From the IMG/VR virus record IMGVR_UViG_3300029490_000143: a DNA stretch of 7,870 bases, one strand, 5' to 3'. The position numbers were made by a program, and so were the translations under genes. The notes beneath the pieces were generated by a model. That model was not told the origin of the DNA, did no database searches, and saw only the letters and a list, made by a program, of their open reading frames with translations. The number at the start of each line of letters is the position of its first letter. Within the stretch, counting starts at the first letter, position 1. Shown here piece after piece: positions 5,560 to 7,014 of the stretch. Source of the stretch: a virus (lineage: Duplodnaviria; Heunggongvirae; Uroviricota; Caudoviricetes).

Positions 5560-5571
5560 TTAAAGGAAAAG

Positions 5572-5612
5572 TTGCTGTCTGATTGTCATTAGTCTAACAT
5601 TTTAAATGTTGG
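5572..5612 (+). promoter_or_regulatory. Promoter-like sequence downstream of Q (candidate late promoter pR' analogue)
   Basis: TTGCTG (5572-5577), a 17-bp spacer, then TAACAT (5595-5600). An alternative is TTGTCA (5583-5588) with TGTTGGAAT further downstream. Both are weak matches to sigma70 consensus; the position immediately after Q is where lambdoid pR'/qut sites lie. Confidence 0.25.
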
Positions 5613-5632
5613 AATCGCAACGTAGTTATTAT

Positions 5633-5640
5633 CATATAAC
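5633..5640. repeat. Target-site duplication CATATAAC (left copy) of the IS256-family insertion
   Basis: The 8-bp sequence CATATAAC directly abuts the left IS terminus and is repeated at 6961-6968 directly after the right terminus. Confidence 0.7.
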
Positions 5641-5679
5641 GAGCCTGTAAATAATTTTGTGTAATTGCTTTTCATCAAT

Positions 5680-6891
5680 TTAAAGGTGATTGCTTAAGCG
5701 GTCACCGAATTCAATAATAAAGCGGCTCATGGCTAAACGCCAGTCGCGAATCGGCATATTCCACTTTTTAGATGCTGCATCAATGGCCAGGTAAATCACT
5801 TTACGTACAGAATCATCCGTTGGAAAGACTTTACGCTTTTTGATCGCCTGACGTATTACGCTGTTTAATGATTCGATCGCATTGGTGGTATAGATGGCTT
5901 TGCGTATCTCGGCTGGATAAGCAAAGAAGGTATTTAGATTCTCCCAGTGTGTACGCCAGCTTTTGCTGATCTGTGGGTACTTGTCATCCCATGTTTGGGC
6001 GAATTGATCCAAGGCCATCAAGGCTGCCTCTTCAGTAGGTGACTGATAAACGGCTTTTAAATCCTGAGTGACCGCCTTGTAATCTTTCCATGATACGTAT
6101 TTCAAGCTGTTACGCAGCATATGGATAATGCACAGCTGGATATGGGTTTGCGGGTATACGCTGTTAATGGCATCAGGAAAGCCTTTTAGTCCATCCACAC
6201 AGGCGATCAGAATATCCTGCAACCCTCGGTTTTTAAGCTCAGTCAGGACATTCAGCCAGAACTTTGCACCTTCATTCTCAGCCATCCACATGCCGAGCAG
6301 TTCTTTCTGTCCATCAAGATTAATGCCTAAGGCAAGGAATACAGCCTTGTTGATAACACTGCCATTATGACGGACTTTAACTACAATACAGTCCATATAG
6401 ACGATGGGATAGAGTGCATCCAGCGGACGGTTTTGCCATTCAGCGACTTGCTCCTTAACAGCATCAGTCACCTTGGAAATAAGCGTTGGCGATACATCAG
6501 CATCGTACATTTCTTTGAAAGTAGCCACGATTTCACGGGTAGTCATGCCTTTGGCATAAAGGGATAGAATTTGGCTATCCATTTGCGTGATACGAGTCTG
6601 ATTCTTTTTAATTAGCTGTGGCTCAAATGTGCCATCACGATCTCGTGGTGTGGTGATCTCAATCTCACCATCATCGCTCAGCACGGTCTTACTGGAATAA
6701 CCGTTACGAGCATTTGAACCGTTCTTACGAGCATTCTTTTCATGTCCGAGATGTTCGGTAAGTTCGGCATTGAGAGCCGTTTCAACAGTGAGTTTAGTCA
6801 ACAATCGGGTGAATTGATTGAGATCGTCTTCTGTTTTGATTCCTTTAGCAAATTCTGCTGCAAGGTCTTTTAGTTTTTGTTCGTTCATCAT
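5680..6891 (-). CDS. IS256-family (mutator-type) transposase
   Basis: Start at the ATG (6891) that follows GGAG on the - strand, giving MMNEQKLKDL... of 404 aa; the longer track ORF from 6936 is an extension. The central region YPIVYMDCIVVKVR...GINLDGQKELLG...ILIACVDGLKGFPDAI...QLCIIHMLRN fits the IS256 DDE pattern. Confidence 0.85.
   Translation of the reverse strand: MMNEQKLKDLAAEFAKGIKTEDDLNQFTRLLTKLTVETALNAELTEHLGHEKNARKNGSNARNGYSSKTVLSDDGEIEITTPRDRDGTFEPQLIKKNQTRITQMDSQILSLYAKGMTTREIVATFKEMYDADVSPTLISKVTDAVKEQVAEWQNRPLDALYPIVYMDCIVVKVRHNGSVINKAVFLALGINLDGQKELLGMWMAENEGAKFWLNVLTELKNRGLQDILIACVDGLKGFPDAINSVYPQTHIQLCIIHMLRNSLKYVSWKDYKAVTQDLKAVYQSPTEEAALMALDQFAQTWDDKYPQISKSWRTHWENLNTFFAYPAEIRKAIYTTNAIESLNSVIRQAIKKRKVFPTDDSVRKVIYLAIDAASKKWNMPIRDWRLAMSRFIIEFGDRLSNHL
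6102..6173 (-). pseudogene. Decayed astA (EAST1 enterotoxin)-like frame embedded in the transposase gene, +1 frame
   Basis: The - strand from the ATG at 6173 reads MPLTAYTRKPISSCALSICCVTA then TGA (6104-6102); past the stop the same frame reads NTYHGKITRRSL. This aligns along its length with EAST1 as I recall it (MPSTQYIRRPASSYASCIWCATACASCHGRTTKPSLAT). The EAST1 Cys24 position is a stop here and Cys17 and Cys27 are substituted. Confidence 0.4.
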
Positions 6892-6960
6892 GTTGCCTGA
6901 CTCCGTTGTGAATATGAACATAGCAAATTCAGGCAATTACACAATTTAATTTACAGTCTC

Positions 6961-6968
6961 CATATAAC
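6961..6968. repeat. Target-site duplication CATATAAC (right copy)
   Basis: Identical to 5633-5640 and immediately adjacent to the right IS terminus. Confidence 0.7.
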
Positions 6969-6985
6969 AGCTTGTTTCCTGATTT

Positions 6986-7014
6986 AGCCAGCCTCCCCAA
7001 AGGCTGGTTTTTTT
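6986..7014 (+). terminator. Intrinsic terminator (8-bp stem with one G-U pair, 8-nt loop, T7 tract); candidate tR' analogue
   Basis: AGCCAGCC (6986-6993), loop TCCCCAAA, then GGCTGGTT pairing back, followed by a T run through 7014. It reads as a terminator on the + strand; on the - strand there is an A tract before the stem and no U tract after it. Confidence 0.7.

Follow-up and report, generated by a model that had tools for sequence, protein, structure and literature searches.

What the segment at positions 5560 to 7014 of a 7,870-nt stretch of caudoviral DNA (IMG/VR record IMGVR_UViG_3300029490_000143; the whole stretch is hereafter the window) once controlled, and what an insertion sequence has left of it, is the question raised by this locus. 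We consider it probable that the segment belongs to a defective lambda-like prophage at att-lambda and is its late-gene regulatory cassette, which has been split by an IS256-family element. It is an ordinary late-gene switch preserved as a recognizable relic, rather than a new kind of element. The features of the region are given below by position, strand and description:

5182..5559, + strand: Q antiterminator gene, intact, 125 aa, Q21 family (PF06530)
5572-5577, + strand: candidate pR' -35 hexamer TTGCTG (3/6), read off the sequence, function presumed
5576..5594, + strand: presumed Q-binding element within the promoter spacer, by analogy with phage 21
5578-5594, + strand: promoter spacer of 17 nt, read off the sequence
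5595-5600, + strand: candidate pR' -10 hexamer TAACAT (4/6), read off the sequence, function presumed
5604..5615, + strand: predicted transcription start at ~5606-5607 with two candidate sigma-dependent pause elements
5604-5609, + strand: candidate pause element AAATGT, -10-like, just downstream of the predicted start
5607-5615, + strand: candidate pause element TGtTGGAAT, extended -10-like, just downstream of the predicted start
5633..5640, no strand: left copy of the 8-bp target-site duplication, CATATAAC
5641..6960, - strand: IS256-family insertion sequence of 1320 bp, identified by Pfam and terminal repeats
5680-6936, - strand: IS256-family transposase ORF
6961..6968, no strand: right copy of the 8-bp target-site duplication, CATATAAC
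6969..7014, + strand: distal leader and tR' intrinsic terminator, from a terminator scan and homology to the Stx-phage tR'
6986-7009, + strand: tR' hairpin of nine pairs, five of them G-C, with a 6-nt loop
7008-7014, + strand: T7 tract
7043..7193, - strand: 3' remnant (~50 codons) of a lipocalin (Blc-like) gene (PF08212)
7194..7870, - strand: end of an IS3-family (IS2-type) element that runs off the window edge (Pfam rve, rve_3)

The Q product establishes which kind of switch is to be expected. The Q21 and Q82 families are defined by PF06530 and PF06323, respectively (PMC9388147), and in a Pfam scan the window Q matches PF06530 as its sole family (E = 2e-51, with the profile covered over its full length), with no match to PF06323. 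The PDB chains of Q21 likewise match it in a phmmer search (E = 2e-8; PDB 6P18). The protein is 100% identical to the Q of phage IdasGreatGrand, 88% identical to QuuD of E. coli K-12 and 81% identical over 120 residues to the Q of the Stx phages (933W/VT2-Sakai), and shows ~32% identity over 83 residues to the phage 21 Q (162 aa as against 125 aa in the window). Going by its sequence, it groups with the phage 21 Q, the Stx-phage Q and DLP12 QuuD, and not with the phage 82 family. Its differences from QuuD cluster at residues 77-98, which are likely to be the DNA-recognition region. No CII-type paQ site of the kind that lambda and phage 21 have is found within Q, the sole lambda-like match being the known xis site.

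The inserted element displays the hallmarks of the IS256 family, namely a Mutator-type DDE transposase (PF00872 Transposase_mut; E = 4e-122, Pfam scan), a length of ~1.3 kb and imperfect terminal inverted repeats, which are flanked by an exact 8-bp direct duplication of the target. A 100% identical copy resides at another site in E. coli S43, where RefSeq labels it an IS256 family transposase, and the exact end sequence of the element recurs in Morganella psychrotolerans and Acinetobacter indicus. The duplicated octamer is present in single copy in uninterrupted relatives. Taking out the element and one duplicate leaves 173 nt that match the uninterrupted sequence of phage IdasGreatGrand at 100% identity and occur at 99% identity or more in 566 complete E. 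coli genomes (100% in hundreds of these); this leader type is carried by 1113 of 5426 E. coli genomes (~20% of complete genomes), and direct comparison with E. coli XJ5.2 reveals the empty site. The pre-insertion sequence, which the initial annotation had proposed to reconstruct in silico, is hence a real one. That annotation had also placed the promoter-like TTGCTG-N17-TAACAT, the insertion, the duplication and the hairpin with its T7 tract correctly, and its spacing of about 100 bp is a fair description of the reconstructed sequence, in which 115 bp separate the start of the -35 from the end of the T tract and 57 nt lie between the -10 and the hairpin. The genome, viral and metagenome collections searched contain no exact copy of the junction between the element and the leader. 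E. coli TOK-001 was considered as a near-isogenic empty-site strain and rejected, as IS2 sits at another position there.

In lambda and phage 82, pR' lies within ~15 nt of the Q stop codon. It likewise does so in both Q21-family systems examined, phage 21 and the Stx phages (PMC7547250). In the window, the candidate -35 begins 13 nt after the Q stop, and we place the start site 6-7 nt past the candidate -10. The two hexamers agree with the consensus at 7 of 12 positions, the site is not flagged by a promoter scan, and shuffling the 155-nt intergenic sequence produces at least one equally good site in 93% of cases; as a motif match it is, therefore, no better than chance. Further, the promoter-proximal half of the leader has no significant similarity to the phage 21 or Stx-phage pR' in alignments and matches no characterized qut region among those of DLP12, phage 21 and the Stx phages. 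With the hexamers at chance level and no characterized qut site aligned, the promoter call thus rests on context: what speaks for the candidate is where it lies, the retention of the key -10 bases and an architecture that parallels the curated phage 21 pR'. TTGCTG is unchanged in all related leaders, including the Lambda_2E9 type (90.7% identical), and the candidate -10 varies among relatives as TAATAT, CAACAT and TAATGT, with A2 and T6 kept in every one.

The phage 21 system also provides a template for the presumptive Q-loading signals. Its Q-binding element (QBE) consists of two direct 8-bp subsites in the promoter spacer (bioRxiv 10.1101/651190). In the spacer region of the window, TGTC occurs at 5576-5579 and again at 5584-5587, an 8-bp spacing that by analogy is suggestive, though only that, of a candidate Q-binding element; the case is weakened because position 5585 is G, T, C or A among close relatives. 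The phage 21 motif itself (ATTGAGCA/AATGAGCA) is absent from the window leader. As for the pause, the curated phage 21 pR' has its sigma-dependent pause element (SDPE) at +2..+8. TGGAAT, the better pause-element candidate in the window, is missing the critical A at the second position in the window allele, and its Lambda_2E9 counterpart reads TGtTAGAAT (5/6 plus TG).

At the other end of the leader, the hairpin and T7 tract form the only + strand terminator-like site found by a terminator scan of 5100-7300, and because the - strand has no T tract after the hairpin, it serves rightward transcripts. With the insertion removed, this terminator lies ~80 nt from the predicted start, and the reconstructed 81-nt RNA has a folding energy of -23.3 kcal/mol (z = -3.46). 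In pairwise comparison, the terminator half is identical at 42 of 54 positions to the VT2-Sakai tR'/StxS 3' end (E = 4e-7). The Stx-phage pR' start and this tR'/StxS 3' end have been mapped experimentally, the latter by Term-seq (PMC7547250). On the strength of this sequence match, the window hairpin is homologous to a mapped tR' and not to an early-operon terminator.

An architectural parallel comes from the phage 21 cassette, which shares with the window a Q of PF06530, a pR' (in the window a candidate) straight after the Q stop, a spacer of 17 nt, a -10-like element just after the start (predicted in the window), a terminator within 100 nt and a short terminated leader preceding the late genes. 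The two differ in the distance from the Q stop to the -35 (13 nt in the window, 7 nt in phage 21), in the -35 itself (the weak TTGCTG versus TTGACA) and in leader length (~80 nt versus ~45-50 nt), and the phage 21 promoter region, with its own QBE subsites, has no DNA similarity to the window. In the Stx phages (933W/VT2-Sakai), pR' also abuts the Q stop, and the tR' hairpin together with ~25 nt upstream of it is homologous to that of the window, whereas the promoter and qut, with TTTACG-N16-TATCAT and a TTTACGATCGTAAA palindrome, bear no sequence relationship to the window leader, Q has a different predicted recognition helix, and the leader is 258 nt long and processed to a 74-nt sRNA, as against ~80 nt in the window. 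The QuuD region of DLP12 in E. coli K-12 has the same gene order of ybcO, rusA, ylcG and Q, but quuD is followed by other sequence, which includes the terminator region and 3' end of nmpC, a gene in the opposite orientation; the alignment to the DLP12 pR'/qut region that the initial annotation had suggested yields short patches against the window leader and nothing convincing. Its other suggested comparator, phage 82, was mistaken, since the phage 82 Q belongs to the PF06323 family and the window Q to PF06530 (PMC9388147); with the window Q in the Q21 family, an alignment to the phage 82 qut is not to be expected. The two would share a logic of promoter, extended -10-like pause element and terminator read through under Q (PMC5001585, PMC4914094). 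However, the published account of phage 82 has transcription starting at AAA and pausing at +25, with a -10-like element at +9..+14 and GCC at +15-17 (PMC5001585, PMC4914094), and these features, compared by description, do not map onto the window leader.

In intact relatives, the 155-nt intergenic unit lies between Q and the holin and endolysin genes, which are ~3 kb downstream on the same strand, with moron-like genes interposed. The first gene after tR' is the lipocalin, which is full-length (525 bp) in four loci (L001, L002, L091 and L095); the slot between the Q unit and the lysis genes holds tRNA genes in phage 21 and tRNA or stx genes in the Stx phages. In the window, the lipocalin gene is truncated by the IS2-type element and identity with the relatives stops at 7194. 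Plasmid-borne IS3-family elements match this element at 99.7% identity, and its counterpart in TOK-001 bears the RefSeq name 'IS3-like element IS2 family transposase'. A deletion in this prophage has removed the immunity and early region, from which Q would be driven. Among phage records, 12 have the leader and 12 have the Q subtype (at least 95% identity), and in these same 12 everything from Q to holin is inherited as one block; consequently, the linkage of Q to the leader cannot place the Q site.

This bears on the view that there is no late promoter here at all, and that the hairpin and T7 tract are a moron boundary or the end of a delayed-early nin-Q operon, with the Q-responsive promoter elsewhere, such as just upstream of the holin gene. 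The inheritance of the block as a unit and the chance-level hexamer match both leave room for it, as does the other + strand terminator that an intact relative has directly before its holin gene. Nevertheless, we hold it to be very improbable, given that phage 21 and the Stx phages keep pR' next to the Q stop, that the hairpin resembles a mapped tR' in place of an early-operon terminator, and that the sequence ahead of the holin-proximal terminator shows no better promoter. Alternatively, tR' may be correctly identified with the late promoter being the extended -10-like TGtTGGAAT (5607-5615). Transcription would then start near 5622, with TATTAT (5627-5632) as pause element and a near-palindrome at 5593-5613 as Q-binding site; the insertion, at ~+19, would separate the pause element from the pause site and in that case destroy Q loading, not just lengthen the transcript. 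The Lambda_2E9 counterpart of this element is indeed a better match than the TAATGT found there, TATTAT matches a -10 at 5/6 positions and lies downstream at a suitable distance, and the near-palindrome just upstream has 10-nt arms. Yet the window, IdasGreatGrand and most E. coli copies have the allele with a G at the nearly invariant -10 A, there is no -35 at a usable distance, and TATTAT becomes TATTAC in two related loci. Moreover, a strong extended -10-like element ~15 bp past the -10 resembles the phage 82 pause element (PMC5001585). We accordingly regard this placement of the promoter as improbable.

A further proposal concerns the RNA and not the promoter. StxS, the processed pR'-tR' RNA of Stx phages, binds Hfq and activates rpoS (PMC7547250), and the ancestral ~80-nt pR'-tR' RNA could by the same token have been a trans-acting Hfq-binding sRNA of this type, besides or instead of being part of a switch, in which case the insertion would have inactivated it by parting its body and terminator from the promoter. 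Its 3' 50-55 nt are homologous to the StxS 3' end, and a strong hairpin with a U tract at the RNA end is the usual Hfq-binding module. Against this, most of what the two RNAs have in common is the terminator itself, the seed is not conserved, since StxS has GUAACGAA and the window GCAACGUA (2 of 8 positions differ), and the predicted pairing with the rpoS leader (-33.7 kcal/mol) is no better than that of shuffled sequences (-30.6 +/- 4.4 kcal/mol). Rfam searches of the window, the intact leader and the Stx-phage and phage 21 loci, by both gathering thresholds and E-values, returned only tRNAs and sub-threshold matches driven by terminators. An sRNA role for this leader is, hence, quite unlikely in our assessment. 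Two wider ideas we rate together as unlikely. One is that the pR'-tR' RNA of this widespread non-Stx prophage could belong to an StxS-like family of Hfq-binding RNAs with a conserved 3' module, distributed across lambdoid phages with Q21-family antiterminators. The other possibility is that the ~35-nt initial transcribed region of the leader is a preferred target of IS256-family elements. Another locus (L009) has a second, independent insertion 25 bp from the insertion point in the window; with two such independent events so close together, recurrent insertion might be a means by which hosts silence prophage late genes.

Returning to the late-switch interpretation, we posit that pR', right behind the Q gene, would act as a constitutive late promoter of the sigma-70 type, that Q would bind in or close to its spacer, that the first ~10-15 transcribed bases would hold a sigma-dependent pause element resembling a -10, and that the ancestral tR' would have ended an RNA of ~80 nt. 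In intact relatives, promoter-bound Q is predicted to load onto the paused polymerase, as the phage 21 Q does, and the Q-modified polymerase would then pass tR' and the downstream terminators to transcribe the lysis and structural genes. In the window, the IS256-family element appears to have inserted downstream of all the Q-loading signals and upstream of tR'; at ~34 nt past the predicted start, it would leave the signals upstream intact. Because the element lies in between, transcripts from pR' would now cross ~1.3 kb antisense through it before reaching tR', and a Q-modified polymerase would go on into the truncated lipocalin gene and IS2. The core idea of the initial annotation, a Q-dependent pR'/tR' unit split by the insertion, with Q-modified polymerase entering the element, is thus likely to stand, backed by context and homology (the intact Q, the relatives and tR'); the corrections concern the phage 82 comparator and the promoter half, which aligns to no characterized qut.

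The cassette does not challenge the current understanding of Q-dependent late switches, and its value is mostly one of annotation: an unannotated 155-nt intergenic unit, present in about one-fifth of complete E. coli genomes, can now be read as the candidate late promoter and the terminator of a Q21-family subtype, for which the proper comparators are phage 21 and the Stx phages in place of phage 82. For this prophage, the late switch is a dead end, with its leader split by one insertion sequence, the next gene cut by IS2 and the immunity and early region deleted. More broadly, the pairing of this Q subtype with its leader could add a natural Q/qut specificity to comparative work on Q loading.

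Without the IS and one copy of its duplication, the leader matches phage IdasGreatGrand at 100% identity over 173 nt and sequences in 566 complete Escherichia coli genomes at 99% or more, so that both the insertion event and the pre-insertion reconstruction are certain; the leader type is carried by 1113 of 5426 complete E. coli genomes. The hexamers, spacer, IS, duplication, hairpin and T7 tract of the initial annotation all lie where it had placed them.

Features of the window
16-1245, ybhJ
1479-2762, minus strand, ybhC
4310-4600, ybcO, distal nin region of a lambdoid prophage
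4597-4959, rusA, same region
4956-5096, ylcG, same region
5182-5559, Q (late antiterminator gene), downstream of ylcG
5572-5577, candidate -35 TTGCTG, followed by a 17-nt spacer
5595-5600, candidate -10 TAACAT
5641-6960, IS of 1320 bp with an 8-bp duplication, CATATAAC, at each side
6986-7009, tR' hairpin, 9 pairs
7008-7014, T7 tract
7194-7870, IS2-type (IS3 family) element, cutting short the lipocalin (Blc-like) gene found after tR' in intact relatives

The 155-nt intergenic unit directly follows Q in phages IdasGreatGrand and Lambda_2E9 and in E. coli XJ5.2 and TOK-001, all of them intact relatives; beyond it lie a lipocalin gene on the opposite strand, ybgA-like and HTH genes, and then holin, endolysin and the other late genes. 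Its distal part, including the terminator, aligns with the tR' region of the Stx phages VT2-Sakai and BP-4795 (42/54 identical; pairwise E 4e-7), for which dRNA-seq and Term-seq have located the start at pR' and the 3' end at tR', with StxS as the intervening RNA (PMC7547250). The T tract follows the hairpin on the plus strand only, and the reconstructed RNA has a folding energy of -23.3 kcal/mol (z -3.46), chiefly from the terminator. The architecture resembles that of phage 21 (curated record OL657228): the phage 21 spacer, which holds the Q-binding element (QBE), measures 17 nt, as does the candidate spacer of the window. The -35 lies 7 nt past the Q stop in phage 21, and the candidate -35 of the window 13 nt past it; the terminator ends by about +50 in phage 21 and some 80 nt past the inferred start in the window. 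Phage 21 has a weak -10 and a pause element starting at +2 (OL657228); in the window, the -10-like elements AAATGT (5604-5609) and TGtTGGAAT (5607-5615) come right after the candidate -10. The candidate promoter hexamers match the consensus at 7/12 positions and were not flagged by a promoter scan, and when the 155-nt intergenic sequence is shuffled, 93% of the shuffles contain an equal or better site; the natural variants of the -10 (TAATAT, CAACAT, TAATGT) always keep A at position 2 and T at position 6. Position, tR' homology and architecture support in substance the earlier proposal of a Q-dependent pR'/tR' unit; with phage 82 as a comparator, it pointed to the wrong Q family.

The window Q matches the whole of Pfam profile PF06530, which represents the Q21 family, and also the solved structures of phage 21 Q (E 2e-8). 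Phage 82 Q defines a family of its own, PF06323, and no similarity between the two families is detectable (PMC9388147), so that phage 21 and the Stx phages, rather than phage 82 as initially suggested, are the proper comparators. The promoter-proximal half of the leader does not align with the characterised qut regions of DLP12, phage 21 or Stx phages. The differences of the window Q from K-12 QuuD (88% identity) and Stx-phage Q proteins (81-85%) concentrate between residues 77 and 98, probably its DNA-recognition helix. The window leader lacks the Q21 QBE motif, as would be expected if the QBE co-varies with this helix.

The spacer carries TGTC twice (5576-5579 and 5584-5587) at an 8-bp spacing, like that of the Q21 subsites. 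However, all four bases occur at position 5585 in leaders that otherwise share 98-100% identity (IMG/VR loci and Lambda_2E9); this oddly hypervariable single site within the putative Q-binding region weakens the repeat. A near-palindrome, TCTAACATTT-T-AAATGTTGGA (5593-5613), covers the candidate -10, the start and a candidate pause element and could be a protein-binding site; in Lambda_2E9-type leaders two substitutions turn AACATT into AATGTT, making the inverted repeat a direct one. A perfect 14-bp palindrome, TTTACGATCGTAAA, closes the Stx-phage and Morganella-phage Q genes (L084 1123-1136 and L088 1125-1138). It overlaps both the Q stop codon and the pR' -35, and the two copies are identical although the Q proteins have diverged (both at roughly 64-81% identity to that of the window). 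It is likely a QBE for the Q subtype of those phages.

Other promoter placements are conceivable. The extended -10-like element TGtTGGAAT might itself be the late promoter: the critical second position of TGGAAT, also the better-looking candidate pause element, is G in the window allele and A in the Lambda_2E9 type. We rate this low because the G allele is that of a sequenced phage and of most genomes. A further possibility puts pR' just in front of holin, at a second strong plus-strand terminator (ACGCCAG...CTGGCGT, then a T-rich tail; 6497-6528 in the IdasGreatGrand locus, L001) that lies immediately before this gene and is also conserved in E. coli XJ5.2 and Lambda_2E9; linkage is uninformative against this placement because the whole block is inherited together, but it runs contrary to the arrangement in phage 21 and Stx phages. 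The arrangement in lambda and 82 is likewise contrary to it. The holin-proximal terminator is a further one that Q-modified polymerase would need to pass. The ancestral RNA of about 80 nt might also have been a StxS-like sRNA, as its homology to StxS suggested, but the StxS seed is not kept, the predicted rpoS-leader pairing is no better than that of shuffled sequence, and Rfam holds no family matching the leader RNA.

The transposase of the IS, which lies on the minus strand, is of the Mutator type (PF00872, E 4e-122). An identical copy occupies a different site in E. coli S43, and the element is rare in the species (one identical copy among 5426 complete genomes, all other matches at ~77%); Morganella psychrotolerans and Acinetobacter indicus share its terminal sequence exactly, suggesting a recent cross-genus spread. 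The exact IS/leader junction was found in none of the collections searched. In the IMG/VR prophage IMGVR_UViG_2541047874_000003 (L009 1922-3265), a different IS256-family element (~1315 bp, 71% identical to the window IS, opposite orientation, duplication GTTGGAAT) sits in the same leader at the equivalent of 5608-5615, 25 bp upstream of the window insertion point. Two independent insertions within ~35 nt hint at a possible hot spot.

The surrounding prophage is itself decayed. The chromosomal part of the window is of E. coli/Shigella type, with a cluster of imperfect palindromic REP/BIME-like repeats of the GCCGGATGCGGCGTAAACGCCTTATCCGGCCTAC type between ybhJ and ybhC (1256-1470). After ybhC come the lambda attachment core, int and xis, with 2809-4264 being 99% identical to lambda 27724-29179. 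At 4261-4264, a deletion junction with a 4-bp overlap fuses lambda-like DNA just past xis to the end of ninE and ybcO, with a loss of ~2.1 kb relative to the att-lambda prophage of E. coli XJ5.2. The immunity region, N, pR and all immunity and early regulatory genes are missing, leaving no obvious promoter for Q; no sigma-70-like promoter was seen upstream of the ybcO-to-Q segment, and Q's own promoter has probably been lost.

The insertion lies ~34 nt past the inferred start, downstream of the candidate promoter, any spacer QBE and both pause-element candidates, and upstream of tR', and a terminator scan detected no further terminator-like site on the plus strand within the IS, so that transcription from pR' would cross the transposase gene in the antisense direction as far as tR' unless Rho acts first. 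The expectation in the initial annotation that Q antitermination, if it still occurs, would carry transcription into the IS is correct as an inference. Q-modified polymerase would continue past tR', to meet only the last ~50 lipocalin codons and the IS2-type element at 7194, inside which the window ends (7870), with any late genes beyond lying outside view. The cassette belongs to a well-known kind of regulatory unit in phages, of which it is an ordinary, previously uncharacterised member; an IS has inactivated it, and in this genome it is a relic.
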